Assembly (NCBI GenBank): GCA_040880545.1
Contig: JBBDIE010000158.1
Coordinates: 9,358 to 73,357, forward strand
Source: Bacteroidales bacterium
GTDB taxonomy: Bacteria > Bacteroidota > Bacteroidia > Bacteroidales > GCA-2748055
Length of the DNA: 64,000 nt
Direction: 5' to 3'
Position numbers and translations under genes: made by a program. Below, piece by piece: positions 25,786 to 53,526 of the stretch (the first letter of the stretch is position 1; every line of letters starts with the position of its first letter). Under the pieces are notes generated by a model, which did not search any database, was not told where the DNA came from, and saw only the letters and a program-made list of their open reading frames with translations.

Positions 25786-25842
25786 AATGTTGCCGTGGTG
25801 TTTGTTTAGTCATTCATTGCAGCTATCCACAAATTTTTCTTT

Positions 25843-27863: not shown

Positions 27864-27869
27864 TATCTG

Positions 27870-29189: not shown

Positions 29190-29195
29190 AATGCT

Positions 29196-30194: not shown

Positions 30195-30207
30195 AATTGT
30201 TGGGATG

Positions 30208-31359: not shown

Positions 31360-31365
31360 TAAATT

Positions 31366-34144: not shown

Positions 34145-34146
34145 AA

Positions 34147-36925: not shown

Positions 36926-39900
36926 ATGCCGCTGAGCATCTCGAAAGCGTTGAATATCGAAAAGAATGAGCGAAGCGTGGTTTACCTGCTGCTGCTTCAA
37001 TCTGTATTTCTGGGTATTTTTGCCGGTGCACTGGACGTTGGGGCAAACGCACTGTTTCTTGATGCATATAGTGCAGACCTCATGCCCAGGGCGTTCATGA
37101 TTTCAGGAGCCGTGGGTATCCTGTTTACATCTGCTTATACATTCTTTCAGAAGAGAATGCAATTCAGACTATTTACCATCGTTAACCTGTTATTTGTAAT
37201 TATACTTACCGGTGCACTCAGACTGGGGTACAGCTATACAGAAGATCCAAGACTCACGTTTGCTTTGCTTGTTTTCATGGGACCTGTTGTAATTATCAGT
37301 ATGCTGGGGTTTTGGGGTACGGCAGGCAGATATTTTACACTTAGAGACGGGAAGCGGTTGTTTGGAATTATCGATACAGGTTCAGTAGTGGGAATGATAC
37401 TTGCATTTTATGCAGTACCTGTATTGGTACAATTCAATTTCATGGTGCATGATACACTCTTGATTGGGCTGGTAAGTCTTTTAGCGGCGATGGTATTCCA
37501 GGTAATTGTATTACGTAAGCATCAGCTGATAACCCAGGCAGGTTCAACAAGAAAAAGAATCAAAAAGTCTGGTTTCCTTGATATTTTCCGCAAGCGTTAT
37601 ACCTCCATGATGGCTCTGTTCGTGGTACTAAGTGTGATCACAGCATTTTTTATTCATTACTCATTTATGTGGGCAACGGAAGCGAATTACAGCGACAGCA
37701 GGGAACTTACTGGTTTTCTGGGTGCTTTTTTTGGTACGATGATGATCTTTACGGTTATTATTAAAAGCACACTGTACGGATGGCTGATGAAAAATTATGG
37801 ATTAAGGGTCACCCTGTTGATCTCCCCTGCGTTGCTGCTTATTTTAACTATCATTGCTTCTGTAGTAGGAGGGCTCTTTGGATATTCAGCCGAGTCTGCA
37901 AGTTTTACCTTTTTCTTTCTGGTAATTGCCCTTTCAAAACTCTTTAACAGATCCTTAAAGGATGCCATTGAAAGTCCGTCCATGAAGATCCTCTACCAGT
38001 CACTTGATTCGGACGAAAGATTTGATGTACAGGCACGGATTGACGGTGTGGTGAATGAACTTACTGCATTTATGGCAGGATTGGTCATGGCGGGCTTACT
38101 TCTGTTAAGTTTCATTAATGTTATTCATTTTTCATATATTCTTATTTTTCTGTTGGTTATTTGGGTCATCCTTGGTTATTCGCTGTACAGATCATACAGA
38201 AAAACCCTGAATGAAACGCTGGCCTCCGCCAAAACATCTACCAGCAGTAGTCCAGTAATTGATATTTCAGCGCAGGAAAAAGTATCCACCACACCAATGT
38301 ACGGTGAAACGATCCGGCTGGATCCCTATTTTTATCACGCTTCGACGCCGGAAAAACTGGATAAATACCTGGGTGCTTCGGATCCGTTGAGACAGTATTT
38401 TACCTGGCAGTTGATTTCAGGAACCTTATATAGCTGTGATCCAGATTATGTGGATGAGGTGCTGAAAGCAACTAAAGAACCTGTATTGCAAAAGGTTATC
38501 CGTGAATACACTGAACGTTTGCGGTTACCAGGAAAAAATATAGAGAAAGCGTTTCGCTCTGCGGATAAAAATGAGATTATAGCGGCTTTATTACAGACCA
38601 TCAGGGATCATGATGTAAGTCAGGTGCCCCATATCATTACCTTGTTGAGGGACAGGGACCTGCAGCTCAGGGCTACTGCTATTGAAGCGGCAGGAAAATT
38701 AAAAGTGAAAGAGCTGGGAAGCTACCTTGTGGACTACCTGGGTCACCCGGACCTTTATTCGGTAACGTGGTCGGCGTTGGTTAATATGGGAGAGATAATT
38801 CTGGAAAACCTTGAAAATGCATTTCATAAAACCGGAACAGAGACTTTTGTTCGATTAAGGATCGTACGGGCAATGGTTGCCATAGGGGGGGACAAGGCAA
38901 ATGAATATCTTTTCCAGAAGATCAGTTATCACCAGCGGGATATCAGGGAGGCAGCAATCAGGGGGCTATATCTGAATAAGTTTACACCCGATGCGCGTAG
39001 AATTCCGGTTCTTCAGGCAGCCATCTATGAAGCTGTACTGGCAGGTGCCGGCAATATTGCCACTGAAGCTGTCTTACGGGAGAATGATCCTGGGATCGGA
39101 ATTCTTGATACGATCAGGGAGGAGAAGCGAAATACGGATAACCTCCTATTTAATTTGCTTGGAATAACCTATGAAAAGAGTGCGATCGAACACGTACAGC
39201 GAAGTATAGAAGATTCCGAAAACGAAGATACCGGCTTTGCTCTTGAGTTGCTTAACCTGATTGTTGATGAACAGGTATATGCCTACCTGGAACCTTATTT
39301 TGATATTTTGTCTGCTGGAGAGAAGATCCGGCGTTTACAGAGTGAAATGCCCGTGGAAATACTTCCCTATTATACTTTGTTGATCGATCTGTTAAACAGG
39401 GACAGCCTTTATACAGGAAATTATCTGCGTGTGTGTGCTATCGATGCCATAAGGTTGTCGAAAGGTGTGGATGCCGGAAAGTATCTGGCCGCACAGGTAT
39501 TCCATCCGGATCCGGTTATCAGGAAAACGGCGTCCCTGGTACTGGCAGATAAAGATGCTGCTTTGTATGAGAATGTATCCGAACGGCTGGACATGTATTC
39601 AAGGGAAATTGATCATGACATATCAATCACGGGCCTCTTCCATGGACCGGAAATTATCAAGGTTGTTGAAGATCTGAAACAATGGAATTTTTTTCGGACT
39701 CTTGATCGCGAAGTAATATTCCGGTTGGCAAGTCATCTGGTTAGTTCCGACGCAGTAAGTCTGAACAATCCGGATCGGGTCTCCATGATAAAGGCAGGTG
39801 AAGATCGGGAATCTATTTTTTCTGACGGGATCGTGATTAATCTGACAGACTACCCGTCTGTATTGGAGCATATGGCACTCCTTACTTCAGAGTCCGGCTT

Positions 39901-40030
39901 CAGGTTATACCAGGCTGACAGAACCGTATTCAGAGAATTATTGTTTGATATGCCGGGCCTCTTGTATGCCTGCAATAGTATATTTGGTAGCACCAACACG
40001 GCTGAATTGTTAAACCCAAAAGTTTATTGA
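36926..40030 (+). CDS. 12-TM transporter-like (MFS/TLC-like) domain fused to HEAT repeats and a degenerate cNMP-binding-like C-terminus
   Basis: 1034 aa. Twelve hydrophobic helices in a 6+6 layout with a basic central loop (aa 1-440). HEAT-like repeats follow (LLRDRDLQLRATAIEAAGKLK, DIREAAIRGLY, DPVIRKTASLVLA). The C-terminal FFRTLDREVIFRLASHL...GEDRESIF resembles a cNMP-binding fold but lacks the canonical FGE/RTA residues. Confidence 0.6.
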   Translation: MPLSISKALNIEKNERSVVYLLLLQSVFLGIFAGALDVGANALFLDAYSADLMPRAFMISGAVGILFTSAYTFFQKRMQFRLFTIVNLLFVIILTGALRLGYSYTEDPRLTFALLVFMGPVVIISMLGFWGTAGRYFTLRDGKRLFGIIDTGSVVGMILAFYAVPVLVQFNFMVHDTLLIGLVSLLAAMVFQVIVLRKHQLITQAGSTRKRIKKSGFLDIFRKRYTSMMALFVVLSVITAFFIHYSFMWATEANYSDSRELTGFLGAFFGTMMIFTVIIKSTLYGWLMKNYGLRVTLLISPALLLILTIIASVVGGLFGYSAESASFTFFFLVIALSKLFNRSLKDAIESPSMKILYQSLDSDERFDVQARIDGVVNELTAFMAGLVMAGLLLLSFINVIHFSYILIFLLVIWVILGYSLYRSYRKTLNETLASAKTSTSSSPVIDISAQEKVSTTPMYGETIRLDPYFYHASTPEKLDKYLGASDPLRQYFTWQLISGTLYSCDPDYVDEVLKATKEPVLQKVIREYTERLRLPGKNIEKAFRSADKNEIIAALLQTIRDHDVSQVPHIITLLRDRDLQLRATAIEAAGKLKVKELGSYLVDYLGHPDLYSVTWSALVNMGEIILENLENAFHKTGTETFVRLRIVRAMVAIGGDKANEYLFQKISYHQRDIREAAIRGLYLNKFTPDARRIPVLQAAIYEAVLAGAGNIATEAVLRENDPGIGILDTIREEKRNTDNLLFNLLGITYEKSAIEHVQRSIEDSENEDTGFALELLNLIVDEQVYAYLEPYFDILSAGEKIRRLQSEMPVEILPYYTLLIDLLNRDSLYTGNYLRVCAIDAIRLSKGVDAGKYLAAQVFHPDPVIRKTASLVLADKDAALYENVSERLDMYSREIDHDISITGLFHGPEIIKVVEDLKQWNFFRTLDREVIFRLASHLVSSDAVSLNNPDRVSMIKAGEDRESIFSDGIVINLTDYPSVLEHMALLTSESGFRLYQADRTVFRELLFDMPGLLYACNSIFGSTNTAELLNPKVY

Positions 40031-40037
40031 TAACACA

Positions 40038-42059
40038 TTGAGAAAGCGAACTACTATATTTAACCAACTGATACTGAATATTGTCATTCCTGCGATTATT
40101 GCGCTGCTGGCGTTGGGTATGATCAATGTACAACAGACATGGAGCATCCTTGAGCAGTCGGCCGACGAGAAAAGCAGAATCATCAGTGAAGAGATCCGGC
40201 AAATTCATGAAATGCAGGATATGGCCATGCAGATCCTTGAAAAACAACTTGAACCGGAGCTTTTGCATTTTAGCGATCTTTTGGTAAATGAAGTATTTGC
40301 TGACACAAAGAATATTGAATTGGCCGATCTGAATGTTGTACGTGAACGTTTGGGAATGGACAAGGAAAACCAGGATATTTATGTGATAAACAGGAATGGC
40401 ATTGTAGTGAACACTACCTTTGAAGCTGACCTGGGTCTGAACCTGTTTCATTTTGGCCGGGAGCACAGGGAGTTGCTTGAAAAGGTTTGGGAAGAGGGTA
40501 TATTTCACAGTGAAAAGTTTACGGTGGAAAACTCCACCAAAAGACTACGAAAGTTTACATATATCCCCACACTCGACGGAAATTATCTTGTTGAACTGGG
40601 GATCTATTCTGAACAGGCCGATGGTATCATAGATTTTGTTAAAACACGTATGAATACAATGTCGGATGTACAGCGAAATCTGATTTCCGTTGATCTGTTT
40701 ATTGGTAAGGAAAACCCGATCTGTTTAAATGGAGAGGCGATCATTAAGGAAGAATTTTCCGGAGCTTACAGAGAGGTGATGAACAACAAAAAGCGTATTA
40801 CCCTGGATGAGAGAAAAGGAGATCCACCGGTCAGAAGAGAATTTATATTTATGGACCGTCAGAATACCAGTTTATATAAGGAATCAGTCATCCGCATTAT
40901 TTCCGATACCAGTGAAGAACAGGCTGTTTTGAAGAAGGAGTTGTTAAAGTTTCTGCTGGTCTTTTCCATCACAATACTAATTGTAATGACCCTGCTCTAC
41001 AGGAAAACCAAGGTTATTACAGATCCGATCAAGAAGCTGGTTGAGAATGTAAACCGGATAACTGCCGGGCATCTCAATGAACGTGCAGAAGTTATGGGGA
41101 ACAATGAAATCACATCTTTGTCGGAACAATTCAATAATATGATTGCTGAATTGGAAAGTTATTATAACGAACTGGAACAGAAGGTAAAGGACCGTACCGC
41201 TGAAGTGGTGGCTCAGAAGGAGGAGATAGAGGCCCAGCGTGACACCTTGCAGGAACAACGGAATATGCTTGCTGAGATTAATAATTCATTGCAGAAGGCT
41301 TATACGGAAATTGAAGACAGTATTCATTATGCGAGCAGGATCCAAAATGCCATTTTACCGCCGGATGATTATCTGAAAAAGATTATTCCCAATTCTTTTT
41401 TCTTTTATAAACCACGCGATATTGTGAGTGGCGATTTTTACTGGGTGGCATCCAAGGATAATAAAGTGATCGTTTCGGCTGTGGATTGCACAGGGCATGG
41501 AGTGCCGGGAGCCTTTATGTCAATCGTAGGTAGTAATCAGCTGAATTATGCACTGAATATTGAACATGCTACCAGGCCATCTGAGATTATGAGAATACTG
41601 AACGAAGGGGTAACGGCTACGTTGAGACAAACAAAAAATGAGTCGATCCAGGATGGAATGGATATGGCGATGGTTACCATCGACAAGGAGAAAAGAATCC
41701 TTCAATACTCGGGTGCATTCAATCCGCTGATTAAAATAAGGAGCGGGGAGGTTGAAAAGATTAAGGCTGACCGGATTCCAATCGGGGGGCATATTATTGA
41801 AGCAGAGAAGAATTTTACAAATAACGAATTTACCTACCAGGATGGTGATTTGATCTATATGTTTACAGACGGTTATCCGGATCAGTTCGGTGGACCAAAA
41901 GGAGGCAAGTATATGACAGGGAAGTTTATTAAATTGCTCCATACCATATCGGATCATCCATTGGAGGAGCAATATGGATTACTGGAGAAAGAACTTCAAT
42001 CGTGGATGGGAGATGAAGCACAGGTGGATGATATCCTGGTGATTGGTATACAACTTTAG
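40038..42059 (+). CDS. membrane sensor with HAMP domain and PP2C/SpoIIE-type phosphatase domain
   Basis: 673 aa. TTG start 7 nt after the upstream stop, the only start that retains TM1. Layout is TM1, a ~280-aa extracytoplasmic domain, TM2 (FLLVFSITILIVMTLLY), HAMP, coiled coil, then PP2C motifs GDFYWV, DCTGHGVPGAFMS, DGMDMAMV, FTDGYPDQFGG and DDILVIGIQL. Confidence 0.8.
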   Translation: MRKRTTIFNQLILNIVIPAIIALLALGMINVQQTWSILEQSADEKSRIISEEIRQIHEMQDMAMQILEKQLEPELLHFSDLLVNEVFADTKNIELADLNVVRERLGMDKENQDIYVINRNGIVVNTTFEADLGLNLFHFGREHRELLEKVWEEGIFHSEKFTVENSTKRLRKFTYIPTLDGNYLVELGIYSEQADGIIDFVKTRMNTMSDVQRNLISVDLFIGKENPICLNGEAIIKEEFSGAYREVMNNKKRITLDERKGDPPVRREFIFMDRQNTSLYKESVIRIISDTSEEQAVLKKELLKFLLVFSITILIVMTLLYRKTKVITDPIKKLVENVNRITAGHLNERAEVMGNNEITSLSEQFNNMIAELESYYNELEQKVKDRTAEVVAQKEEIEAQRDTLQEQRNMLAEINNSLQKAYTEIEDSIHYASRIQNAILPPDDYLKKIIPNSFFFYKPRDIVSGDFYWVASKDNKVIVSAVDCTGHGVPGAFMSIVGSNQLNYALNIEHATRPSEIMRILNEGVTATLRQTKNESIQDGMDMAMVTIDKEKRILQYSGAFNPLIKIRSGEVEKIKADRIPIGGHIIEAEKNFTNNEFTYQDGDLIYMFTDGYPDQFGGPKGGKYMTGKFIKLLHTISDHPLEEQYGLLEKELQSWMGDEAQVDDILVIGIQL

Positions 42060-42081: not shown

Positions 42082-45000
42082 ATGAGCAGCACACCCAGTA
42101 AGCAGGGTAAATTGTTTAATCCATTTCCAGGACTTCGTCCTTTTACACAGGATGAATCACACCTGTTCTTCGGAAGGGAAGGACAGAGCAAGTCCGTATT
42201 GAATTCACTGGAGGCCAATAATTTTGTCGCTGTAATTGGTGCTTCGGGTAGTGGAAAGTCATCCCTGATATACTGTGGGGTCATCCCTGCTTTAAAGGAC
42301 GAATCCGGAAAAAAATGGACGACGGTTTCTACCAGACCAGGAACCAATCCCATCAAAAACCTTGTGTCATCTGTTTCAGAAGTTTTCGGTGAGAAGGTAA
42401 AAGAGAAAGATGAGGAGAGGCTACTTTCGGGGGAATTATCCCTTCAGGAATGGGTTAACGGGATCATTCCAAAGGGGCAACAATTGCTTTTGATCATTGA
42501 TCAGTTTGAAGAGCTTTTCAGGTACCGGAAGATTAAATCATCTGATACTGTAATGGCAGAGGTGAGTCTTTTTGTTGAGCAGATTTATGCAGTATGTTCA
42601 GAAGGGAATGGTAACATCAGTGTTGTACTGACGATGCGTTCTGATTTTATAGGTGAATGTTCGGTATTTCAGGATCTGACAGAATTGATAAACCGGAGTA
42701 ATTACCTGATTCCCCAGATGACCCGGAATGATTTCAGGAAGGCGATCGAGGGACCTGTAAATGTTGGGGGTGCCACGATCGATCCGGAATTGGTAGAACA
42801 GCTTCTGGATGAAGTGGGTAATAATACGGATCAGTTACCTGTTCTTCAGCATTCTCTCATGCGGACCTGGGATTACTGGGCACTACAAAACATTCCAGAT
42901 AAACCGATTTCAACAGGTGATTATGAGGCAATCGGACGGATGGAAAAGGCACTGTCAGACCACGCCAATGAGGCGTATGAGGAACTTGATGAAAATCAGC
43001 GTAAAATTTGCGAGAACCTGTTTAAAACGATCACGGAGAAGGGTGGTGACAACAGGGGGGTTCGTCGTCCTTCAAGTATTGAAAGGGTGGCTGAAATATC
43101 AAGATGTACCCCAGCAGAAATCATTCAGATAGCCGAGGTGTTCAGAACCGGAGGAAGGACTTTTCTGACACCCTACCAGCCGGTTAAGCTGGCAGATGAT
43201 ACGGTTACGGACATCTCCCATGAATCACTGATGCGTATATGGGACAGGTTAAGGTTATGGGTCGATGAGGAGGATTCATCTGTACAAATGTACAAGCGTC
43301 TTTCCGAAGCTTCGGCACTTTACCAGTCAGGTATTACGGGCCTCTGGCGGCCACCGGATCTGCAACTGGCATTAAACTGGCGGGAAAAGCAGCAACCGAC
43401 GACAAAATGGGCATTACAATATAATCCTGCATTCGAAAGGGCGATGGTGTTTTTGGATACAAGCGCGGCTGAATTTAAGAAAGAGGAGGAGAATAAGATC
43501 AGGCTGCAGAAACGCCGGTTGAGAGTAACCAGGATGTTTTCACTGGTATTGGGAGGAATCGCAGTGATCGCCATGGGATTGTTTTTGTGGACAAGAGACC
43601 TTCAGAGCCAGGCAGAAGCACGGAGAATTGAAGCTGAGGAACAGCGGGAACTTGCAGTTGCAAATGAAGAAAGAGCCAGGCTCCAGGAGGCAGAGGCTAT
43701 TACCGCAAGGAATGCTGCAGATGAAGAGCGACAAAAAGCAGTTGAGGCATCCATTACAGCTGAAAATGAAAGAAGAGAAGCTGACAAACAAAGAACGATT
43801 GCAGAAACCAGGCAACAACAGGCCGACAGAAGCGCGCTTGAGGCAATGGTGGCGCAAAAGCTTGCACAGGAGAATGAAAAGGAGGCAGATGATCAAAGAA
43901 AAAGAGCCGTCGCAGCAAGCGAAGAAGCACAGAACAGGAGAATGCTTTCCATCGCTAAATCCATGTCTGTAAAATCACTCCAGGTGGATAAGACGGATGA
44001 TCCGGACTTGAAGGCCCTACTTGCATACCAGGCATACAGGTACAACCTGGAATATGGAGGTCAGATGCATGAAGCTGATATCTATTCCGGTTTATATGAC
44101 GCCCGAAAAGCGATACTGGGTGATTCATATAATGTTTATGAAGGGCATGCACAATCAGTGAAATCGATCGTATTCGTTCCAGGCACAACCAGACTTATCA
44201 GCGGGGGAACCGATGGTAGGATTTTGTCTCGTCAAATAGAAGATGCACTGGACAATTACGAGGTTTTTAGTGAAAAAGATATATTGCTTGAAGCTTTGGA
44301 CATTAGTTCGGATGGTAAATACCTTGCTACAGCTACCAACAGTGAAGGGATATATGTTTATAACCTATCCGGAGGAAATAATAACCCGTTGATATTTAAT
44401 GGCCATGAGGGGAGAATCAGGGATGTTGAATTTTCTAATAACCCGGATGAACTGTTCAGTATCGGACTGGACAAACAGATATTGAAATGGACTATTGCAG
44501 GCAAAACTTCACAGCAAGTAGCAAATTCAATTTCACGATATAACGATATTGCCCTCTCACCGGATGGAAGGCTACTCGCGGCCAGTAACAGGTCAGGAAA
44601 TATTATCATTATAAACATGGAGGATACTGGGCATCAGGACACCATACACGGTCCGGCACTAAATCCTGTCATCTCCCTGGATTTCAGCCGAGACGGACAA
44701 TACCTGGCTGCTGGTGATCAGCGAGGTAATGTGCGAATCTTTGATACGGGTACTTTTATGCAATTGTACAGTCTGCGGGGTAGTTCTGCCCGTATAGTAT
44801 CTGTTAAATTCAGTCCGAACAATAACTTTCTTGCCTCAAGCAGTTATGACGGCAAGGTTTTGTTGTGGGACATGAAGAATCTCAATAACTCACCTATTGT
44901 GATGGAAGACAACCGTGGATTTGTTTTTACAGTTGAATTCAGTCCTGATGAAAACTACCTGCTGAGTGGCAGCAATAACCTGAAATCCAGACCTGTGAAT

Positions 45001-45138
45001 GCCAGTATACTGACAGAAAATATTTGTAATATGGTCAGCAGGAATTTCACATCAGAGGAGTGGGAGATTTATGTGGGTAAGGATATCAAATTTGTTGAGA
45101 CTTGTCCGCAAATAGTAACTGAAAACCAGCTTAAATGA
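42082..45138 (+). CDS. STAND-type P-loop NTPase + single TM + ~110-aa charged coiled coil + 7-bladed WD40 propeller
   Basis: 1018 aa. N-terminal FPGLRPFTQDESHLFFGRE, Walker A GASGSGKSS and Walker B LLLIIDQFEELF (typical of nSTAND-type NTPases). TM MFSLVLGGIAVIAMGLFLW at 43534-43596 is preceded by KRRLRVTR. An E/R/A/Q-rich heptad-like segment follows. Seven WD40-like blades are present (for example LISGGTDGRI, LASSSYDGKVLLWD). Confidence 0.8.
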   Translation: MSSTPSKQGKLFNPFPGLRPFTQDESHLFFGREGQSKSVLNSLEANNFVAVIGASGSGKSSLIYCGVIPALKDESGKKWTTVSTRPGTNPIKNLVSSVSEVFGEKVKEKDEERLLSGELSLQEWVNGIIPKGQQLLLIIDQFEELFRYRKIKSSDTVMAEVSLFVEQIYAVCSEGNGNISVVLTMRSDFIGECSVFQDLTELINRSNYLIPQMTRNDFRKAIEGPVNVGGATIDPELVEQLLDEVGNNTDQLPVLQHSLMRTWDYWALQNIPDKPISTGDYEAIGRMEKALSDHANEAYEELDENQRKICENLFKTITEKGGDNRGVRRPSSIERVAEISRCTPAEIIQIAEVFRTGGRTFLTPYQPVKLADDTVTDISHESLMRIWDRLRLWVDEEDSSVQMYKRLSEASALYQSGITGLWRPPDLQLALNWREKQQPTTKWALQYNPAFERAMVFLDTSAAEFKKEEENKIRLQKRRLRVTRMFSLVLGGIAVIAMGLFLWTRDLQSQAEARRIEAEEQRELAVANEERARLQEAEAITARNAADEERQKAVEASITAENERREADKQRTIAETRQQQADRSALEAMVAQKLAQENEKEADDQRKRAVAASEEAQNRRMLSIAKSMSVKSLQVDKTDDPDLKALLAYQAYRYNLEYGGQMHEADIYSGLYDARKAILGDSYNVYEGHAQSVKSIVFVPGTTRLISGGTDGRILSRQIEDALDNYEVFSEKDILLEALDISSDGKYLATATNSEGIYVYNLSGGNNNPLIFNGHEGRIRDVEFSNNPDELFSIGLDKQILKWTIAGKTSQQVANSISRYNDIALSPDGRLLAASNRSGNIIIINMEDTGHQDTIHGPALNPVISLDFSRDGQYLAAGDQRGNVRIFDTGTFMQLYSLRGSSARIVSVKFSPNNNFLASSSYDGKVLLWDMKNLNNSPIVMEDNRGFVFTVEFSPDENYLLSGSNNLKSRPVNASILTENICNMVSRNFTSEEWEIYVGKDIKFVETCPQIVTENQLK

Positions 45139-46202
45139 GGAAAATTATACTCTGTATTGTCCTGATAAAATATGGTATATTTATTTCAGCACAGGAGCAG
45201 TGTGCCTTTATACTTGAAGAGGCACAGGAAATGTTTGGTATCGGTCTGATCGAAGCAATTCCTGATAAGCTTGCGCCTTGTCTTGAATCCGGTTTTACCA
45301 AAGATGAGAAGCTCCAGGCCCACAAGCTGATCATTCTCGCATACTTGTTTGATGATAATTATGAAATGGCAGATAACGCCATGCTGGCTTTCCTGTCTGA
45401 ATTTCCTTCCTACGAACCGGTAGCTACTGATCCCAGGGTATTTATTGCCCTTATGGAGACCTATGACACTAAACCTGTATTGATGATGGGTGGAAGTATT
45501 GGCCTGAACTTTACGGTGCCACTGGTTACAGGCAGGGTAGGAACATACAATTTTCAATCGTACCATGGAAAATATGTGCCGGGAGGTGCAGGTTATCATG
45601 GATCGTTCAGGGTGGACAAAGTGATCAGACCGGGCATGGTCCTTTCCGGGGAACTCATGTTTGCGAACAACCGTTTTGACTTTTACCTTGATGGAACATC
45701 GGAAATAACAGAATTTTCCGGTGAGATTACCGATTTTTCACAAATCGAATATTATGAAACCCAGAACAGTATTTCCCTGCCCATAAGTATCAGATATCAA
45801 TTCAGGGAAGGTCCATTGTTCACTTTTACTACAATCGGGATATGTCCGGGACTACTTTTATCAGCTACAGGTGAGGGCAAAAGGGATTATATAAATACAA
45901 ATTTTACCAGGTATAATCCAATTGAAGTATCCAACGTTAATATCCTCGACAAAAGAAGGATGTTTACAATGAGGGCATTTGCGGGGTTTGGCGTTAAGTA
46001 CAATATAGGCCCGGGTGAGTTTTTTCTGGATGCCCGCTACTATGTGGATTTATTGAGTCAGGTGAAGCCAGGTGTTAGCCGGTATGTGAATGATATTGCC
46101 ATGCAGTTATTCTACGTAAATGATAATCTTCTGCTTACCAATCTGGCCATTTCAGCCGGGTATGTGTTCCCAATTTATCGTCCTAAAAAGAAAATTGAAT
46201 AG
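45135..46202 (+). CDS. predicted outer-membrane beta-barrel protein with a small helical N-terminal domain
   Basis: 355 aa. Signal peptide. ~90-aa helical (TPR-like) segment, then alternating beta-strand composition with the barrel ending near AGYVF. The ATG overlaps the upstream stop (ATGA). Confidence 0.55.
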   Translation: MRKIILCIVLIKYGIFISAQEQCAFILEEAQEMFGIGLIEAIPDKLAPCLESGFTKDEKLQAHKLIILAYLFDDNYEMADNAMLAFLSEFPSYEPVATDPRVFIALMETYDTKPVLMMGGSIGLNFTVPLVTGRVGTYNFQSYHGKYVPGGAGYHGSFRVDKVIRPGMVLSGELMFANNRFDFYLDGTSEITEFSGEITDFSQIEYYETQNSISLPISIRYQFREGPLFTFTTIGICPGLLLSATGEGKRDYINTNFTRYNPIEVSNVNILDKRRMFTMRAFAGFGVKYNIGPGEFFLDARYYVDLLSQVKPGVSRYVNDIAMQLFYVNDNLLLTNLAISAGYVFPIYRPKKKIE

Positions 46203-46203
46203 A

Positions 46204-47391
46204 ATGAGACCCAGAATTTTATATGTGATCCTGTTGATTTTCCCGCTGGTGTTTCATGCCTGCAAGGATGAACTTACCGATCTTCAGAAAGACTCCTTCA
46301 TGAAGTTTTATGGAAGTTACCTGAATGACGCAGGCAGGGATGTAAAGGCACTTCCTTCCGGAGGTTATGCGATTACCGGGAATATTGTACCAGATTCAAT
46401 TGTTAAAATGGCACTGATCATTACAGATGAAGCAGGTAACCAGGTGGAAGGGTCTCCCTGGTTTTATGGTGGTAAATATCAGACCGGCGGTACAACATTA
46501 CTGTTGTTGGAAGACGGCTATCTTCTGGGGGGAACCCTGGTTGATACGGCCAGTGACGGGGAATTGTATACAGATATGTTTCTGGTTAAAACCGATGCCG
46601 CTGGAAATGAAGTCTGGAGCCAACGGTATGGTAATGAAGAAAGTGATCTGTTGAATCATGTGATCCATCGAAAAACCGGGGGCTTTGTTTTGGCCGGAAA
46701 AAAAACCACCAATGAAAACGAGGACCTTTGGATCGTGATGGTGGATGAAAACGGGAATAAACTTTATGATTTCACAGGAAAGGATGTTGATGACGATGAT
46801 GAGGCGAATTTCCTGATCAGTACCGGTAATGGTTATTTGTGTGCCTGTACCTATGATGATGGGTCGATGGAAGGTACCGATATATATATATTGAGCCTGA
46901 ATGAGAATTGCAGCCCGGAAGGGTCCACTGTACTGGGAACTGAAGATGATGATATTGCAAGGACAATTATCAGGTATCAGGATGGATTTGCTGTGATGGG
47001 TTATACGGAAAATACGCTTACCGGGCAGAATGATATTTCCGTCTATACCTTTTCTGTGGAGAATCATAATTTTAAAAACGTACAGAAGATGGCAACGCTG
47101 TCTGAGCTATTGGCGGACCTGACCGGAGAAGATTGTGTTGTAAATTCCAAAGGAGATATTGCCATCATAGGATCGCGTGAAGCAAATGATAACCGGGATA
47201 TGTATCTTGTAATTATTGATAGTTCCGGAAGTATTGTAGGTGAACCAGCTCTATTTGGGGGGTCGGGTAACCAGACCGGGCAGGCCATTGATAAAACTGC
47301 CGACGGAGGCTTAATTTTGACTGGTTCGAATGCGTTTGGTGGTAACACCGTGATCACCCTGGTAAAGACAGATGCCGGTGGAGCTCTATAA
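46204..47391 (+). CDS. lipoprotein with seven beta-propeller-like repeats
   Basis: The ORF-track start at 46120 overlaps the previous gene. ATG 46204 gives the lipoprotein signal MRPRILYVILLIFPLVFHAC, 1 nt after the upstream stop. Seven repeats are of the form GGYAITG...IITDEAGN, DGYLLGG...VKTDAAGNEVW, GGFVLAG...VMVDENGN, and so on. Confidence 0.65.
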   Translation: MRPRILYVILLIFPLVFHACKDELTDLQKDSFMKFYGSYLNDAGRDVKALPSGGYAITGNIVPDSIVKMALIITDEAGNQVEGSPWFYGGKYQTGGTTLLLLEDGYLLGGTLVDTASDGELYTDMFLVKTDAAGNEVWSQRYGNEESDLLNHVIHRKTGGFVLAGKKTTNENEDLWIVMVDENGNKLYDFTGKDVDDDDEANFLISTGNGYLCACTYDDGSMEGTDIYILSLNENCSPEGSTVLGTEDDDIARTIIRYQDGFAVMGYTENTLTGQNDISVYTFSVENHNFKNVQKMATLSELLADLTGEDCVVNSKGDIAIIGSREANDNRDMYLVIIDSSGSIVGEPALFGGSGNQTGQAIDKTADGGLILTGSNAFGGNTVITLVKTDAGGAL

Positions 47392-47412: not shown

Positions 47413-50400
47413 ATGAAAACCAGGATTGTCTTAATATTTTTATTACTCATTGCTTCTGTTGGCTCATTGGTAACAGGGCAATCTGCGAATCTGACAAATC
47501 CGTTCATTGACGAAACGGATGCGCGATCCAATACCAATGTTATCATTCTGCAACTTACCGGGGATACGCTCCTTGCAGATATTGCCTCGGACGACATTGC
47601 AGCAGCAATTTTTCTTGGAGGTATGTCGGGAGGGAGTGCTGCATGGGACAGCCTGGTTGGTTCACTGAATGCAGGAAATATAACACTACTGAACAATAAC
47701 CTGACAGCACATATCAGTGTCCCTTCCAGCACTTCTTATTACATCGTTTCAGATGATACAATTACATTCACTATTCCTTCTGCTTCTCTTAAATCAGGTG
47801 GAGATTCAATTGTTGCCACTCCGGAGATCGTTATTGCGAATGAACTTTCTGCAATTTCCGGGGATGGCGGCGATTTAGCTGTAACAGCAACCGAATCGGA
47901 TATCAGGAGCAGAGACAATTCATATAGCCTGGAACTCGACAATAACCTGTGGAACAGTGATATTACGGGTTCTGCAGACCTTCTGGATACCATTAAGGGA
48001 ATGTTCAGTGGAGGTACAGTTTTTCCATCTTTGGTGGATGCTTTAACCCTGGCTGATCTGGAAATCAGCGTAGATGGAAAAATTCTTGGAATTTATTTTC
48101 GGCAGAATTTACAATATTTCATAGAAACAGATGAAGTGATCTCCGTGGAGGTTTCAAATTCACTGTTGTCATTCGAAGAATTCTTTACAGACTCTGTTCA
48201 GGAATTTACAATTACCAACGAAATTCCTTACATTTCAATTACGGCCAAAAGCCTTACTGAAGCTGAAATCAGATCCGGGTCAACAGACTTTGATATTACC
48301 CTGAACGGGGACCAATGGAGTGGCTCGTTGGGAAGTAATTTCGCTGAAGATATTGTTTCCGGAGGCAACTGGGATACCCAGATCACTCCGTTTCTGACAT
48401 TTAACAGGATCAGCGACACGGTTGTAACCGTTACAATACCTGAGACTTCCGGTTTTGATATAATTAACGAAGAAACTGTACAGGTAACTGTGTCCGCAAC
48501 AGCTCTTCAGCATACCTCAGCAGGTAGTTTTACTGCCTCTGAGGAGATGACAATTACCCCAGAGCCGGTAATCATAATTGGTTCAGCGACCTTTAACGGA
48601 GTTAACGAAGGTGATATCAGGGTAAATAGTTATACAATTACACTGACACTTTATGAGGACACCTGGCATGGCGATATTGGTGGTGATAATTCAAGGAACA
48701 GGGATCTGATCAATAGTCTCACCTTTACACCAACAGAGTCGGTTGCAGCGGGAGTGATGAAGGCAGAAATTCTGCAAGGGGGTAACGACGGCGCCGACAA
48801 TACTACAGTATCTGGAAATGTTGTGACCATTACGGTACCCGAGGTTGCAGCTTTTAATATTCAAGAAGATGTACAGGTAAGTTTTGCGGTACCATCATCT
48901 GCACTTGTCAATTCATCAACTACTGTAAATACAGGTGATTTTGCTTTCATCAGTCACATTGTACCCACCATGGAAATTTCATCAGATCCTGATCCATTAT
49001 ACGAATCGGATCTGAATAAATCAATTATAGGAGTGAAACTTTTCGAGGAAGAGTGGTTTGACAATAATCTGGATAAATCAAATTTCAACCTGATTGTAAC
49101 CCCATCAGCTGCCGGAATTTCTATCAAAAAAATTAGCAGGTTTGGTTCTGATTCATGCGAAATTGAATTGCAGTATGATGGTATTATGAGTACGAACCAC
49201 ACGATCGATCTGAGCATTAATGCTGTTGAGCTGAAGGGTTCAGATCCAATCACAGGGGCCATATCGGGGATACCCGTTATTGCACTAATTGAACCGGTTA
49301 TCCTCGATGTGGTAATTCCAGATGTACCCATGGGAATAGGAGATATTGTCACAGCGCAAATTACGGTTGATGATGACAATGATTTCGTATTTGATTCCAT
49401 TGTGGGGACCATAGCCGGAAGGGTGATGATAGAAGGGTCCCTGGTTCGGATTTCAGAGACGCTGTACACTGCTGATTTTGAGATAATAGAAGACTCTGAG
49501 CCGCAATATGCCGGGGGAGATGATATTGTTGTTGATAGTTTGCAGATGTTTAACGATACAGTGCCTGGAAATTATTATTCAGGTGTAATATCACAGAGCA
49601 ACGACCTGATCGATTCAAAACGACCTGTAATTGGGTTGGTAAGTTTCAATAACGGAAAATACAGAATTGGACAGTCATTGGTTGCAACCATACAATCGGC
49701 CGAATCGAATCTTACTTTTGATGAAAATCTGACCTCAATCAATACAATTCCACTTACCGATCCCGGAGTGGTAGCGTATAATGCAGGAAGTGGGATTTAC
49801 CAGTTAACCTATACCGTAGCAGAGGGAGATCCGGATGTTGTATCACCAGCAGCTGTACCGGTGAATATAGTGTTACGGGATGGAGTATTGAACAGCAGTC
49901 TTGTTGCAACATCCTATTCGGGTGCTGATCCGGAAATTGACGCCAACAGTCCGGTGATAACAACTGTGGATGAGACAAGCACAGGTACGCAGGTACCGGG
50001 GAATAGCATTGTACATACCATTACTGCAACAGAAAACGGTTTGTTATTGGGGAGCGGTACCACCGTGAATAATGTGGGGGTTGGATCGGGCCGGATATCT
50101 TTAGCTGTTGCTGGTGAGAACACCTATCAACTGGTCTACGAAGTTAGTGCCGATGATAGCAAGGTAAGTTCTGGTAATCTCATGGTAACACTATCTCTGG
50201 CCGATTCTGCTGGTAATGAGACTGTTTTTGGTGGAACTATTACAAACAAGGATCTTTCAATCGTTACTTCATCGCCGACTGCTGATATGTATGGAGGAGG
50301 AACGATTTGTGCAGAAGATTCAGCTGAAATTTTAATAGCTATTTCAGGAGGAACACCTCCTTATCATGTTACGTTGTATGAAGATGGGGCATTATTCAAT

Positions 50401-53400
50401 AGCTATGTTGATGTGGGAACGCAGTTGACTGTGAAAGTTGCTCCGCTGGATGACACCCGCTATGTCATACATAGAATCAGTGATGCAATGAACGTCATTA
50501 CATTTGGTGCTGATTCTGTTGATATTCAGGTGAACCCTCTTCCAACTGCTGCGTTTTCTCCAACTATCAGAACTATATTCTCTGTGGATGGTGGTGGAGC
50601 TTACCAACTTCCGGCAACGCCCATAGGCGGAGTTTTCAGTGGTCCCGGAGTGGTCCCGGCGGAAGGACGTTTTTATCCGGGTATTGCAGGTGTATCGGAT
50701 TCACTTGGACATGAAATTGTATATACCTATAAGGAAAGCACGACTGGATGTATTGGCACTGACACCGTTATTTTCACAGTTTTGAATACCAGTGGAGAAT
50801 TAACCATCGACTTCCCGGATGTCAGCAGGGAAGGGATTATCTGTTATGACGATGGTATGTTCAGAATTACTGGTAACAATGTGGCTGATCCGCCGGTCAT
50901 AGGCAGTTTTAATTTATACAGGGTAGACAGGGCCGGTGATGTGGCTGTACCGGAAGCCATTATAGATGAGGATCCTGATGATAACATGGCCTTTATTGAT
51001 CCATCAAAACTGGTAAATGAGTCGGTCGGCTACAGGGTCGAATATGAATTTCTGTGGGAAGGCTCGGTTGTGGTTATTGAGAGACCCCTGATATTTGATT
51101 ATGTCAATGAGATTGTTTTCAGTAAAACGATCCCCGTTACTGTATGTAAAGATGAATCAGCGGTTGCACTGGAGGCATCACCTAATATAGATGGCACCTT
51201 CAACTTTTCTGGTCCGGGAATTCTGGGTAATGAAGTGGTTGGATTCACCTTTGAACCGGATTCCGGTGATATTGGATTAAATACATTCATCTATCAATAC
51301 ACATCTGATATGGGGTGCACCAGGTCGGCCGGGTTGGAAATAACTAATTTTGATGTACCCGTTGTCGTATTCACACCGCAGGATGTGTGCATACCCCCGG
51401 TTGATGCACAAACAGGTGAGGGAGGAGGTCCGATTACCTTTACCAATGAAACTACCCAGGCCGGACTTGTGTCCAGGTGGATGTGGGAATTCGGTGATAT
51501 CAATAGCGGATCAGGCAATTTCGATACCATCCCCGGTAACGGATCCGCAATTGATGTTGTTCATGATTATACCGCACCCGGAAACAGGAGTGTTTTGCTG
51601 AAAATCGAAACATACGAAGGTTGCGACGCATCACTAAGCAGATTAATTGAATTTACCGACAAGCCCGATGCCGACTTTAAGGCAGTAAGTGATTGCTGGA
51701 TTCCCGGAGAGCCAATAGAATTCAGGAATTATTCTGTATCTCAAAAAAAGTGGGAGACCTTCACCTGGACCATCAGAAACGATTTGATGACATGGGATAC
51801 GACCGTTATAACAACGGTAGTGGATTCCTTAGCCAGGATATACTTTAATAACAGCGATGACACATATGAGATTGCATTGGAGGTGAAAAATATTGCGGGA
51901 GAAAATCTGAACTGTTATGACACCAAAGTCGACAAAGACTTTATTTTAAAACCTACCCACCGGTTTATCGAGAATGAAGGAGCGAGATTTATGACCTTCG
52001 ATGATAGCGGGGAGAAATGGACCACAGATTCTACAACCAATTTTTCAAGCTGGGAGTGGGGTCTGCCCAATTTCGAAGGCTTTGTTGCCCCACCCAATGA
52101 CAATGCATGGTTTACTTTGAGGGACAAGGGTGCTAGTGGTGAGCGTTCATGGATTCAGAGTGAATGTTTTGATTTCAGAAACCTGGAAAAACCCATGATC
52201 AGAATGGATGTAATGCGGAGTTTTGACAGGAACAGGGGAGGAGCCGTATTGCAATATTCCCTGAATAACGGAACAAACTGGCAGACCCTGGGAAATATCG
52301 GGGAGGGCATCAACTGGTACAATTCGTTTGAGATAATCAACAGACCCGGGGGAGGCAGAAGTGGCTCGGGTAGTTCCATAGGTTGGTCCGGAGAAAATAT
52401 ATTCAATCCTGATACTTCCTGGATTACAGTAGCTCATGATTTGGATGACCTGCTGGATGAGCGCCTGGTAATTTTTGGAATATTTTATGCTACTGATGGA
52501 GCCTCTGCATTAGATCCACCACCCCAGGGTTTTGCAGTGGACAATATTTATATTGGAGAAAGGACGAAAAGAGGAATTGTGGAGCATTTTACAAACGCCT
52601 ACGACCAGGCATCCTTTGACGCCGATCAGAAAATCAATAACTTCGTTACAGCAAATAATCTGGATGTGACCAGTGTGCAGTACCATATGCATTATCCCGG
52701 TGATATATCTGATCCAATGAATGAAAATAATCCTGCACCTGCATCGGCACGCTCATTTTACTATGGAGTGAATCAGGTGCCCTATGCCTTGTTGGACGGA
52801 GGAATCAATGCTGAATATAAGTATAATTTTGTACCTGCCGGACCGACGATCACACAGTTAAAAAGGCTTACCCTGGAAAAACCACTTTTCCAGCTTGACC
52901 TGAAGTTTCAACTACACAGTAATCATTTGTCGACCACCATTACTACAGCAGCACTTGCAGATATTGAGCACAGCGATATTGTGTTGAACACTGCAGTTGT
53001 TGAGAAATCGGTTTTTGCTTCCGGTGTGAATGGTGATACGGAGTATCGAAATGTGGTACTTGATATGCTTCCTTCATCTGGCGGACATATGTTTTCAAGA
53101 TCATGGACAACAGGTGATACACAGGAAGAACAGTTTACCTGGACCTACAAGCATGTTGGCGACTATGATGAGTTGATGCTGGTAGCCTTCCTGCAGGATC
53201 GGGAGACTGACAAAATTCTACAGGTAGTAACTGGTGAAGAATCGGTTTACCCGATGAATATTGTTCATAACAAGGCCAGTGAATTACGCCTTTATCCCAA
53301 TCCGGCACGATCGGTATTGTTCATCGAAAATGCAAATGCTGCGGAATCTGCTGGTTCAGTTGTGATCAGCGATATGACGGGCAGGATTGTAACATTGAAA

Positions 53401-53526
53401 GAGATTGCCGCCGGCGAACAGAAAATAGAGATCAATACCATGGAACTTTCAGAAGGTACATATATTGTCAACTGGAAAGTAAATGGAATAGTTCTGGGAA
53501 GAAGCAGTTTTATAAAACTAAGGTAA
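47413..53526 (+). CDS. 2037-aa secreted multidomain surface protein, T9SS cargo
   Basis: Signal peptide. Five N-terminal ~110-aa repeat modules. PKD-like domain (WMWEFGD, ~51400-51660). C-terminal T9SS type-A sorting domain (LRLYPNPA...GTYIVNWKVNG). Confidence 0.85.
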   Translation: MKTRIVLIFLLLIASVGSLVTGQSANLTNPFIDETDARSNTNVIILQLTGDTLLADIASDDIAAAIFLGGMSGGSAAWDSLVGSLNAGNITLLNNNLTAHISVPSSTSYYIVSDDTITFTIPSASLKSGGDSIVATPEIVIANELSAISGDGGDLAVTATESDIRSRDNSYSLELDNNLWNSDITGSADLLDTIKGMFSGGTVFPSLVDALTLADLEISVDGKILGIYFRQNLQYFIETDEVISVEVSNSLLSFEEFFTDSVQEFTITNEIPYISITAKSLTEAEIRSGSTDFDITLNGDQWSGSLGSNFAEDIVSGGNWDTQITPFLTFNRISDTVVTVTIPETSGFDIINEETVQVTVSATALQHTSAGSFTASEEMTITPEPVIIIGSATFNGVNEGDIRVNSYTITLTLYEDTWHGDIGGDNSRNRDLINSLTFTPTESVAAGVMKAEILQGGNDGADNTTVSGNVVTITVPEVAAFNIQEDVQVSFAVPSSALVNSSTTVNTGDFAFISHIVPTMEISSDPDPLYESDLNKSIIGVKLFEEEWFDNNLDKSNFNLIVTPSAAGISIKKISRFGSDSCEIELQYDGIMSTNHTIDLSINAVELKGSDPITGAISGIPVIALIEPVILDVVIPDVPMGIGDIVTAQITVDDDNDFVFDSIVGTIAGRVMIEGSLVRISETLYTADFEIIEDSEPQYAGGDDIVVDSLQMFNDTVPGNYYSGVISQSNDLIDSKRPVIGLVSFNNGKYRIGQSLVATIQSAESNLTFDENLTSINTIPLTDPGVVAYNAGSGIYQLTYTVAEGDPDVVSPAAVPVNIVLRDGVLNSSLVATSYSGADPEIDANSPVITTVDETSTGTQVPGNSIVHTITATENGLLLGSGTTVNNVGVGSGRISLAVAGENTYQLVYEVSADDSKVSSGNLMVTLSLADSAGNETVFGGTITNKDLSIVTSSPTADMYGGGTICAEDSAEILIAISGGTPPYHVTLYEDGALFNSYVDVGTQLTVKVAPLDDTRYVIHRISDAMNVITFGADSVDIQVNPLPTAAFSPTIRTIFSVDGGGAYQLPATPIGGVFSGPGVVPAEGRFYPGIAGVSDSLGHEIVYTYKESTTGCIGTDTVIFTVLNTSGELTIDFPDVSREGIICYDDGMFRITGNNVADPPVIGSFNLYRVDRAGDVAVPEAIIDEDPDDNMAFIDPSKLVNESVGYRVEYEFLWEGSVVVIERPLIFDYVNEIVFSKTIPVTVCKDESAVALEASPNIDGTFNFSGPGILGNEVVGFTFEPDSGDIGLNTFIYQYTSDMGCTRSAGLEITNFDVPVVVFTPQDVCIPPVDAQTGEGGGPITFTNETTQAGLVSRWMWEFGDINSGSGNFDTIPGNGSAIDVVHDYTAPGNRSVLLKIETYEGCDASLSRLIEFTDKPDADFKAVSDCWIPGEPIEFRNYSVSQKKWETFTWTIRNDLMTWDTTVITTVVDSLARIYFNNSDDTYEIALEVKNIAGENLNCYDTKVDKDFILKPTHRFIENEGARFMTFDDSGEKWTTDSTTNFSSWEWGLPNFEGFVAPPNDNAWFTLRDKGASGERSWIQSECFDFRNLEKPMIRMDVMRSFDRNRGGAVLQYSLNNGTNWQTLGNIGEGINWYNSFEIINRPGGGRSGSGSSIGWSGENIFNPDTSWITVAHDLDDLLDERLVIFGIFYATDGASALDPPPQGFAVDNIYIGERTKRGIVEHFTNAYDQASFDADQKINNFVTANNLDVTSVQYHMHYPGDISDPMNENNPAPASARSFYYGVNQVPYALLDGGINAEYKYNFVPAGPTITQLKRLTLEKPLFQLDLKFQLHSNHLSTTITTAALADIEHSDIVLNTAVVEKSVFASGVNGDTEYRNVVLDMLPSSGGHMFSRSWTTGDTQEEQFTWTYKHVGDYDELMLVAFLQDRETDKILQVVTGEESVYPMNIVHNKASELRLYPNPARSVLFIENANAAESAGSVVISDMTGRIVTLKEIAAGEQKIEINTMELSEGTYIVNWKVNGIVLGRSSFIKLR
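53281..53523 (+). other. T9SS C-terminal sorting domain (type A) of the 2037-aa protein
   Basis: ELRLYPNPARSVLFIEN...ISDMTGRIV...LSEGTYIVNWKVNGIVLGRSSFIKLR matches the Por secretion-system CTD pattern. Confidence 0.85.

Follow-up and report, generated by a model that had tools for sequence, protein, structure and literature searches.

A Bacteroidota STAND NTPase with a predicted membrane-spanning layout, an alanine-heptad stalk and a WD40 propeller

We analysed a stretch of 64,000 nucleotides from a Bacteroidales bacterium (GenBank assembly GCA_040880545.1, contig JBBDIE010000158.1, positions 9,358 to 73,357 of the forward strand), referred to here as the window, and focused on a gene in it that encodes a STAND NTPase. 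In this protein the NTPase core is followed by a single hydrophobic helix, a long stalk with alanine at every seventh position and a C-terminal WD40 propeller. We consider it likely that the NTPase lies in the cytoplasm, with the stalk and the propeller on the other side of the membrane. An earlier sequence-only reading of this DNA, made without database searches, had proposed the same layout and had called it unusual. We observed, however, that nearly all of the nSTAND1 relatives examined carry the same helix. The window gene itself belongs to an envelope gene cluster that is kept across orders of Bacteroidota.

Architecture and predicted topology of the protein

The open reading frame was confirmed, and a Pfam scan matched its product to PF20703 (nSTAND1) with an E-value of 9.6e-94 and 315.5 bits (cut-off 27.1), over profile positions 1-373 of 379. 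These values bear out the earlier placement of the NTPase in the STAND class, and by its profile the protein is a STAND NTPase of the family nSTAND1. The motifs FFGRE, GASGSGKSS (Walker A) and IIDQFEELF (Walker B) were invariant across 30 homologues of 45-70% identity. GASGSGKSS, DQFEE and TMRSDF were invariant in these 30 and also in an alignment with members from Streptomyces, Tolypothrix and Nostoc. Three cysteines of the NTPase module, C65, C193 and C310, were invariant in the 30 homologues as well; they occur in 172-205 of 212 sequences and may make up a metal or redox site.

Since the profile match begins at residue 14, too few residues precede it for an effector domain at the N-terminus. 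Pfam and NCBIfam scans detected no nuclease, TIR, protease or pore effector domain in the STAND gene or its five neighbours. A PADLOC scan of the STAND protein gave only a P-loop-level match to mad3 (E=4e-4, over 23 residues), and for this gene and its neighbours neither PADLOC nor NCBIfam returned an informative family beyond those of Pfam. The claim that there is no effector thus holds for the window gene, but it does not extend to most relatives, which encode a TIR and DUF4062 protein directly upstream.

The hydrophobic segment, MFSLVLGGIAVIAMGLFLW, covers residues 485-503 (or to 505; nucleotides 43534-43596). Its Kyte-Doolittle value over 19 residues (485-503) was 2.25, and it was the only segment above 1.6, with the next best at 1.15. 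The summed Hessa apparent free energy of the same residues was -1.28 kcal/mol. Seven lysines and arginines are found in the 15 residues before the helix (including KRRLRVTR), as compared to 2-3 after it. One such hydrophobic helix was seen at the same place in all 120 of the full-length homologues listed (45-100% identity, about 1000-1050 residues, titled Bacteroidales or Bacteroidota wherever named), and in this close family the mean number of flanking lysines and arginines was 6.7 on the N-terminal side and 2.9 on the C-terminal side. Two small residues of the helix, G491 and A494, were invariant in the 30 homologues. The STAND protein has no N-terminal signal peptide. We placed the N-terminus inside because the NTPase needs cytoplasmic nucleotide, a signal peptide is absent and the positive charge lies on the N-terminal side. 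A single membrane span leaves its two ends on opposite faces of the membrane.

An AlphaFold2 model was built from an alignment of 30 sequences, with a mean predicted local distance difference test score (pLDDT) of 81.5. It showed an unbroken helix from residue 451 to 634, short helices at 641-657 and 665-679, seven blades (693-971) and small C-terminal helices. The hydrophobic segment was an exposed part of the 184-residue helix, packed against no domain. With the whole model as query, the top Foldseek match was full-length Apaf-1 (3shf, E=3.5e-22).

Residues 506-640 are rich in alanine, glutamate, arginine and glutamine. Among 212 homologues, alanine filled 89-96% of each of 16 successive positions at intervals of seven residues (511...616). 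Three residues on from each stalk alanine stood glutamine, asparagine or alanine (65%), and the residue just before it was glutamate, leucine or isoleucine, while stalk positions outside the heptad alanine and these neighbours varied freely. The stalk was 118 residues long in 140 of the 212 sequences; the other common lengths were 111, 125, 132, 139 and 146, and most lengths other than 118 differed from it by whole heptads. The heptad alanines together with the length steps of seven therefore indicate helix-helix packing rather than a simple single α-helix spacer. This pattern argues for a coiled coil where the angular setting of the propeller relative to the membrane helix would matter, as in a signal-transmitting coiled coil. 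If straight, the stalk (residues 506-634, 129 residues) would measure about 19 nm, in line with the GldM/PorM arches of about 18 nm, which span most of the Bacteroidota periplasm (PMC5790014).

Two other arrangements of the stalk were evaluated. A single α-helix of the ER/K type was rejected, given the alanine content of each heptad over all 16 heptads and the stalk lengths in multiples of seven. An intrachain antiparallel hairpin (Alacoil) was not supported, the AlphaFold2 monomer prediction being one straight helix over 451-634. We also observed runs of up to 22 consecutive heptads with alanine at every seventh position in other transmembrane nSTAND1 proteins (P0208, P0186, P0206 and others), beyond Bacteroidota. 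In a cyanobacterial caspase-nSTAND1 protein, from a Tolypothrix plasmid, heptad-spaced alanines follow the helix at residues ~745-800.

Pfam WD40 and β-propeller matches cover residues ~727-995, and Foldseek superposed the propeller on the seven-bladed WD40 domain of Thermomonospora curvata PkwA (5yzv) with a template modelling (TM) score of 0.91. In the C-terminal motif, R987, E993 and W994 were invariant in the 30 homologues. Cys982 and Cys1008, which are the only cysteines of the C-terminal 512 residues, covaried among the 212 homologues: both were present in 161, neither in 44 and only one in 7, counts that are inflated by kinship among the sequences. The two cysteines could form a disulfide; the pattern is as expected in an oxidising compartment and would give indirect support for a periplasmic C-terminus.

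The mean pairwise identity of each region was calculated among 80 species representatives. The cytoplasmic juxtamembrane linker was the most conserved region of the protein (64%), followed by the NTPase (56%), the membrane helix (37%), the stalk (32%) and the propeller, the fastest-evolving part (30% overall and ~25% in blades 2-5). A conserved engine with a fast-evolving predicted sensor is a receptor-type pattern. The conservation of all the architectural elements in more than 100 full-length homologues is far beyond chance.

These results agree with most of what the sequence-only reading had said of the protein, namely one strongly hydrophobic helix at this place, a long heptad-like stretch rich in glutamate, arginine, alanine and glutamine after it, a stalk about long enough to reach the outer membrane, and seven WD40 blades (the strand pattern of the model also gives seven). 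Its use of KRRLRVTR and the positive-inside rule to put the NTPase in the cytoplasm and the propeller in the periplasm is supported as a prediction by the conserved charge bias and the covarying cysteine pair.

The nSTAND1 family and the TIR/DUF4062 partner

The NTPase part (residues 1-470) was searched against 1.84 billion cluster representatives, which gave 45,459 clusters at E<0.001, and the best 147 were examined. The hydrophobic helix was present about 447 residues after Walker A in 143 of the 145 representatives that have a Walker A motif. The mean number of lysines and arginines around it was 6.3 before and 2.5 after. We delineated the layout as a single hydrophobic helix ~370-450 residues after Walker A with a flank rich in lysine and arginine on its N-terminal side, a layout that the window protein also has. 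Three distant members, one each of the HTH-nSTAND1-WD40 (Streptomyces), caspase-nSTAND1-WD40 (Tolypothrix) and CHAT-nSTAND1 (Nostoc) types, all had the helix after a cluster of arginine and lysine. A profile search seeded with these three members found it in 102 of 107 informative distant nSTAND1 proteins. The proteins returned carried HTH, TIR, kinase or FGE-sulfatase domains and came from Actinomycetota, Chloroflexota, Cyanobacteriota and other groups. The sensor repeats varied among the relatives, being WD40, TPR or LRR.

The transmembrane layout thus appears to be a hallmark of nSTAND1 and not a peculiarity of the window gene, and within this family the earlier description of the arrangement as unusual does not hold. 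In the searchable papers on nSTAND1, on STAND NTPases with WD40 repeats and on prokaryotic WD40 proteins, we found no description of a membrane helix or an extracytoplasmic sensor. The nearest published statement concerns one NACHT-CLec target of a diversity-generating retroelement, which was predicted to be periplasmic (PMC10907252). We also did not find described in these papers the heptad-quantised alanine stalk, the Bacteroidota envelope cluster or the loss of the trans-encoded TIR/DUF4062 partner.

Three human-gut contigs named 'Bacteriophage sp.' (MT836527.1, MT835531.1 and MT836049.1) encode an nSTAND1-like NTPase of 23-27% identity, in the NTPase part only. A mobile-element origin was considered and rejected: the phage collection gave these three weak partial matches, and the plasmid matches were large chromid-like replicons or distant nSTAND1 members.

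When we examined the Bacteroidota loci, 42 of the 66 informative ones had a gene of 430-500 codons directly upstream of the STAND gene, and the two often overlap (for example L003, 8691-9989; L037, 8493-9950). Such genes were also noted upstream at L084-L089, and in some relatives the protein is fused behind a Ser/Thr kinase. Its product has three domains: an N-terminal TIR ('YDIFISY'), a DUF4062 and a third TIR-like domain, the last being the best conserved. Pfam TIR_2 was detected in 13 and DUF4062 in 18 of 27 members, and a profile of the protein matched the TIR domains of Toll-like receptors (TLRs) and the KpSwz TIR/DUF4062 structure. The DUF4062 domain has been shown to act as an NADase of TIR-like kind in antiphage defence (Swarozyc), and it adjoins NACHT and WD40 in human TEP1, NWD1 and NWD2 (bioRxiv 10.64898/2026.05.01.722283).

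We also evaluated an out-group of six relatives of uncertain or other phylum, one of them named Planctomycetaceae. The upstream gene overlapped the STAND start in four of these loci and lay 2 and 44 nucleotides away in the other two. In three loci it encoded a protein of ~500 residues with a Pfam TIR_2 match (weak in one), and in the other three a Ser/Thr kinase of ~811-835 residues. The C-terminal ~480 residues of two kinases matched the three-domain module by hhalign with a probability of 100% (E ~1e-51 and 1e-53); the third kinase had only faint precomputed TIR_2/DUF4062 matches. A module-bearing upstream gene was thus found in five of the six loci (by TIR_2 in three and by hhalign in two). 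We conclude that the ancestral unit was probably a TIR/DUF4062 protein together with a transmembrane STAND protein.

In a neighbour-joining tree of the STAND proteins, the window protein fell in a monophyletic clade of 18 loci. The TIR/DUF4062 gene is absent from all of these, which points to its loss in that clade. PP2C was adjacent in every clade locus with upstream sequence (one locus has no such sequence). In the same tree, Fulvivirga and a few others had lost the TIR/DUF4062 gene independently.

The envelope gene cluster

The coordinates of the protein's parts and of the neighbouring genes are given in the table. The six cluster genes in the window share a strand, and no gap between them exceeds 22 nucleotides; the PP2C gene ends 22 nucleotides before the STAND gene, and the STAND stop codon overlaps the start codon of the barrel gene (ATGA). 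The linkage of the STAND gene to the genes for the barrel, the lipoprotein and the T9SS adhesin is tight and probably translationally coupled.

Features of the STAND protein and of its gene cluster (nucleotide positions in the window)
Feature	Position	Strand	Description
STAND NTPase gene	42082..45138	+	1018 residues
nSTAND1 NTPase module, residues 14-416	42121..43329	+	P-loop core plus helical/winged-helix part; Pfam PF20703
Walker A, residues 53-61	42238-42264	+	GASGSGKSS
Walker B aspartate	42499	+	in IIDQFEELF
Cytoplasmic juxtamembrane linker helices, residues 417-484	43330..43533	+	predicted; end in the lysine/arginine-rich KRRLRVTR; AlphaFold2 helix 451-484
Single predicted transmembrane helix, residues 485-505	43534..43596	+	N-in/C-out predicted from hydrophobicity and flanking charge
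Predicted periplasmic stalk, residues 506-634	43597..43983	+	16 heptads, alanine at every seventh residue (511...616)
Stalk-propeller linker, residues 635-690	43984..44151	+	two short helices and conserved RRMLSIAKSM.VKS
Seven-bladed WD40 β-propeller, residues 691-971	44152..44994	+	predicted periplasmic; Pfam, AlphaFold2, Foldseek
C-terminal motif, residues 972-1018 and stop codon	44995..45138	+	C982...RNFT.EEW..Y...C1008; conserved columns
MFS/TLC-like transporter with HEAT repeats	36926..40030	+	1034 residues; Pfam TLC, HEAT_2; ~10 transmembrane helices, ~600 residues of cytoplasmic HEAT repeats
HAMP-PP2C membrane sensor phosphatase	40038..42059	+	673 residues; Pfam HAMP, SpoIIE; transmembrane helix, ~270-residue periplasmic domain, transmembrane helix, HAMP, coiled coil, PP2C/SpoIIE
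Outer-membrane barrel protein	45135..46202	+	355 residues; Pfam OMP_b-brl_2; signal peptide, helical N-domain, ~10-strand barrel
Lipoprotein	46204..47391	+	395 residues; repeated G-G-[YF]-x-[ILV]-x-G motifs, propeller-like; lipobox Cys then K-D-E
Giant surface protein exported through T9SS, the type IX secretion system	47413..53526	+	2037 residues; Por_Secre_tail, TIGR04183; type A C-terminal sorting domain

When one genome was scanned for each species, at least 413 species had a relative of the STAND protein. The best 80 were nearly all titled Bacteroidota and included Bacteroidales, Cytophagales (with the isolates Fulvivirga kasyanovii and Raineya orbicola), Flavobacteriales and Perlabentimonas gracilis. 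The gene order was kept at 61% and at 47% identity. Neighbours were counted in loci with enough flank, and the counts are lower bounds based on BLAST. Directly downstream of the STAND gene, the outer-membrane barrel was found in 72 of 76 loci; the lipoprotein followed downstream in at least 51 of 65 and the giant T9SS cargo in at least 30 of 40. Co-occurrence of the helix-bearing homologues with the barrel and lipoprotein genes, a point raised in the sequence-only reading, was thus seen in most loci. On the upstream side, the MFS/TLC-HEAT gene was present in 52 of 55 loci, while HAMP-PP2C was adjacent or near in 32 of 55 and belonged only to some lineages. The vertical, syntenic inheritance of the cluster is unlike that of a typical defence island.

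The barrel protein was modelled by AlphaFold2 with database homologues (pLDDT 86). The model had a TPR-like helical periplasmic N-domain (residues 21-107), in which Cys23 and Cys49 are invariant, and its best Foldseek matches were of the OmpA/OmpW/Pla type. The identical protein has an NCBI record from a Bacteroidales MAG. In all the lipoprotein homologues, the N-terminal cysteine is followed by a sequence rich in aspartate and glutamate. The minimal surface-export signal of Bacteroidota lipoproteins is K-(D/E)2 (PMC5080379), and the lipoprotein of the window, with CKDE, is probably exposed at the cell surface, going by this signal. A homologue of the T9SS cargo, in locus L003, has repeats of the SprB and PKD kinds. 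Divergence is about equal in the barrel, the lipoprotein and the T9SS cargo. Pfam and NCBIfam scans found no homology to T9SS or Gld/Spr components for the STAND protein, the barrel or the lipoprotein, and only the 2037-residue cargo has a sorting domain.

On the cytoplasmic side, the MFS/TLC-HEAT protein is the most constant neighbour of the STAND gene, and its TLC domain is ATP/ADP-translocase-like. HAMP-PP2C scored 240 bits against a SiaA-like NCBIfam model, below the cut-off of 700. A paralogue on a Runella rosea plasmid (NZ_CP030852.1, 4522-17295; 31% identical) has on its upstream side two STAS proteins along with an RsbW-like ATP-binding protein, and no PP2C; downstream of it lie a TonB-dependent outer-membrane receptor, a GNAT protein and a 962-residue MFS-HEAT homologue. 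An outer-membrane barrel, an MFS-HEAT protein and partner-switching parts recur across these contexts.

A further paralogue, 35% identical, lies beside an MFS-HEAT-like gene on pPP2 of Persicobacter psychrovividus (NZ_AP025294.1, 1-20892), amid a contractile-injection-system cluster with sheath, baseplate, tape-measure and LysM genes. In the window, nine tightly packed open reading frames (24847-35754, minus strand) lie upstream of a divergent Vut_1 gene (35905-36675).

Possible function and comparison with known systems

The physical layout and the gene cluster led us to consider the protein as an inner-membrane STAND switch that acts as a trans-envelope signal transducer tied to an outer-membrane/adhesin complex. 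We regard this whole chain as about evenly balanced between right and wrong. The stalk, as a parallel homo-oligomeric coiled coil, would hold the propeller near the outer membrane while the NTPase stays in the cytoplasm. The propeller would bind an envelope partner, the likeliest being the helical N-domain of the co-encoded barrel or a surface complex anchored by that barrel. Such binding, or its release, would travel along the rigid, phase-exact stalk and across the membrane helix as far as the highly conserved juxtamembrane linker, where it would alter the nucleotide state or the oligomerisation of the STAND module. The module would then act on cytoplasmic partners, which in most relatives may be the TIR and DUF4062 (NADase-type) protein encoded directly upstream. 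Since this gene is missing from the clade of the window protein, the likely partners here are HAMP-PP2C, through partner-switching signalling, the transporter's HEAT domain, or both.

Several observations weigh against this chain. The localisation is drawn wholly from hydrophobicity, charge bias and conservation, and the confidence of the AlphaFold2 model is low (pLDDT 47-57) from the membrane helix into the first half of the stalk. Among the relatives we found none with an exclusively extracytoplasmic domain after the helix, only WD40, TPR and LRR, which are uninformative on topology. The core of the stalk is unusually polar, with alanine at one core position and glutamine, asparagine or alanine at the other, and a comparison of the stalk with solved structures gave only a chance-level moesin match (E=0.42). 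The link between the propeller and the barrel N-domain is taken from gene adjacency, and the label inside-out in the sequence-only reading is a statement on the direction of signalling, which could be outside-in or inside-out. The TIR/DUF4062 gene had no tblastn match in the 64-kb window, no STAS or RsbW homologue was found in the window either, and some lineages (Fulvivirga) have neither the TIR/DUF4062 gene nor PP2C.

A comparison with known systems places the protein among several partial analogues. The nSTAND1 NTPases of bacterial conflict systems (Kaur, Burroughs, Iyer and Aravind, eLife 2021, PMC8195603) belong to the same NTPase family and have superstructure-forming repeats, and the helix is also found in members with caspase, CHAT, HTH, TIR or kinase domains. 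The window protein, unlike these, has no N-terminal effector or adaptor and is inherited in a conserved envelope cluster. With Avs and bNACHT proteins it shares the P-loop STAND core, a C-terminal sensor and an expected oligomerisation-dependent output. Those proteins, however, are cytoplasmic sensors with N-terminal effectors and a patchy, mobile distribution, whereas the window protein has no PADLOC model match or effector and is syntenic across the phylum. STAND-WD40 proteins of the Apaf-1, NWD1 and TEP1 type likewise have a STAND NTPase followed by one or more WD40 propellers. Human NWD1 and TEP1 even join DUF4062 with NACHT and WD40, resembling the TIR/DUF4062-STAND pairing in the relatives of the window gene. 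These proteins lie wholly in the cytoplasm, with propellers folded back onto the NTPase. In the window protein, by contrast, the predicted membrane helix and the ~19 nm stalk would part the NTPase from the propeller, making autoinhibition by direct contact impossible.

Receptor Ser/Thr kinases with extracellular β-propellers, such as PknD of Mycobacterium tuberculosis and PkwA, likewise have a cytoplasmic enzymatic N-terminal domain, a single membrane helix and an extracytoplasmic propeller, and the PkwA WD40 domain is the closest solved propeller. They differ in that the signalling module of the window protein is a STAND NTPase and that a long alanine-heptad coiled coil is predicted between membrane and propeller. 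GldM/PorM resemble the protein in having a membrane anchor at the N-terminal end, a periplasmic part drawn out to ~18-19 nm and contacts to an outer-membrane partner (these being predicted for the window protein). TolA, together with the TolB propeller, can be compared loosely as another periplasm-spanning inner-membrane protein. Neither GldM/PorM nor TolA is related to it in sequence or fold, and they are energised by proton-driven stators, whereas the window protein has a cytoplasmic NTPase of 484 residues of its own. TLRs resemble the relatives in topology only: a repeat sensor outside the cytoplasm is joined by one membrane helix to TIR-type signalling in the cytoplasm. Neither the sensor nor the organisation is homologous, a STAND NTPase is placed between membrane and TIR in the relatives, their TIR is a polypeptide of its own, and the window protein has no TIR partner.

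We also considered the protein as an NLR-like immune sensor of the periplasm, in which WD40 would detect a phage tail or ejection protein or a toxin, and oligomerisation of the STAND module would lead to abortive infection. STAND and nSTAND1 proteins were defined in conflict systems (PMC8195603), the relatives pair the transmembrane STAND protein with TIR+DUF4062 or with a kinase plus TIR/DUF4062, and DUF4062 is an antiphage NADase. The variable sensor repeats of the relatives, and a sensor that evolves about twice as fast as the NTPase, would also fit. However, the window gene and its whole clade have no TIR/DUF4062 partner or other recognisable effector, PADLOC gave no matches to speak of, and the phage collection yielded little. 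The gene order is conserved across Bacteroidota orders within an envelope/adhesin cluster, not a defence island. We therefore think an immune role unlikely here; it is plausible for the relatives that keep the TIR/DUF4062 gene and less so for the window gene.

The reverse direction was examined as well: the NTPase may use ATP to drive or license the assembly, anchoring or movement of the barrel-lipoprotein-adhesin complex, with the stalk and the propeller as a mechanical tether. The tight coupling to the barrel, the lipoprotein and SprB/PKD-type T9SS cargo, a stalk long enough to span the periplasm and the surface-export-like signal of the lipoprotein are in line with this. STAND NTPases, however, are slow switches and not motors. 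The Pfam and NCBIfam scans found no energising partner of the TolQR/ExbBD or GldL kind in the cluster, and relatives outside Bacteroidota keep the transmembrane STAND protein without outer-membrane or T9SS genes. We hold this reading, too, to be improbable.

A wholly cytoplasmic, Apaf-1-like STAND protein, with the hydrophobic helix buried or merely membrane-associated, would suit the classically cytoplasmic WD40 (PF00400) propellers, the Foldseek alignment of the whole model with Apaf-1 and the missing signal peptide, but it is very improbable given the strong hydrophobicity and favourable insertion energy of the segment, its place between a conserved lysine/arginine cluster and an acidic stalk in ~365 homologues of several phyla, its unpacked, exposed position in the model, and the fact that a single span necessarily separates the ends of the protein across the membrane.

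Going back to the trans-envelope STAND switch, a wider reading can be offered, though only tentatively. In it, nSTAND1 proteins would form a very large unrecognised class of bacterial 'receptor NLRs', with the window branch as a domesticated version. Such a receptor would join an extracytoplasmic WD40, TPR or LRR sensor to a membrane helix and a cytoplasmic STAND switch, i.e. a TLR-like topology with an NLR engine, and its outputs would be TIR/DUF4062 NADases, caspases, kinases and HTH domains. In the branches sampled here, a heptad-exact alanine-zipper coiled coil would accompany the membrane helix. In the domesticated branch, the NADase partner would have been lost, and the protein would monitor, or be gated by, the barrel/lipoprotein/T9SS adhesin complex and report to PP2C/partner-switching components and the nucleotide-transporter-like MFS-HEAT protein.

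In bacteria, plants and animals alike, STAND and NLR proteins are regarded as sensors that work in the cytoplasm. Should the predicted topology hold, the window protein and apparently most nSTAND1 proteins (tens of thousands of clusters) would sense outside the cytoplasm and signal across the membrane. This would give NLR-type signalling a new input compartment, and would add a new class of bacterial transmembrane receptors beside histidine kinases, Ser/Thr kinases and anti-sigma factors. The heptad-quantised stalk with its conserved alanines may serve as an experimental handle on how a STAND switch is controlled from about 20 nm away. In Bacteroidota, the conserved linkage to an outer-membrane barrel, a T9SS adhesin and a surface lipoprotein suggests a so far unstudied system for monitoring the envelope, one that would be genetically approachable in cultured Cytophagales and Bacteroidales.

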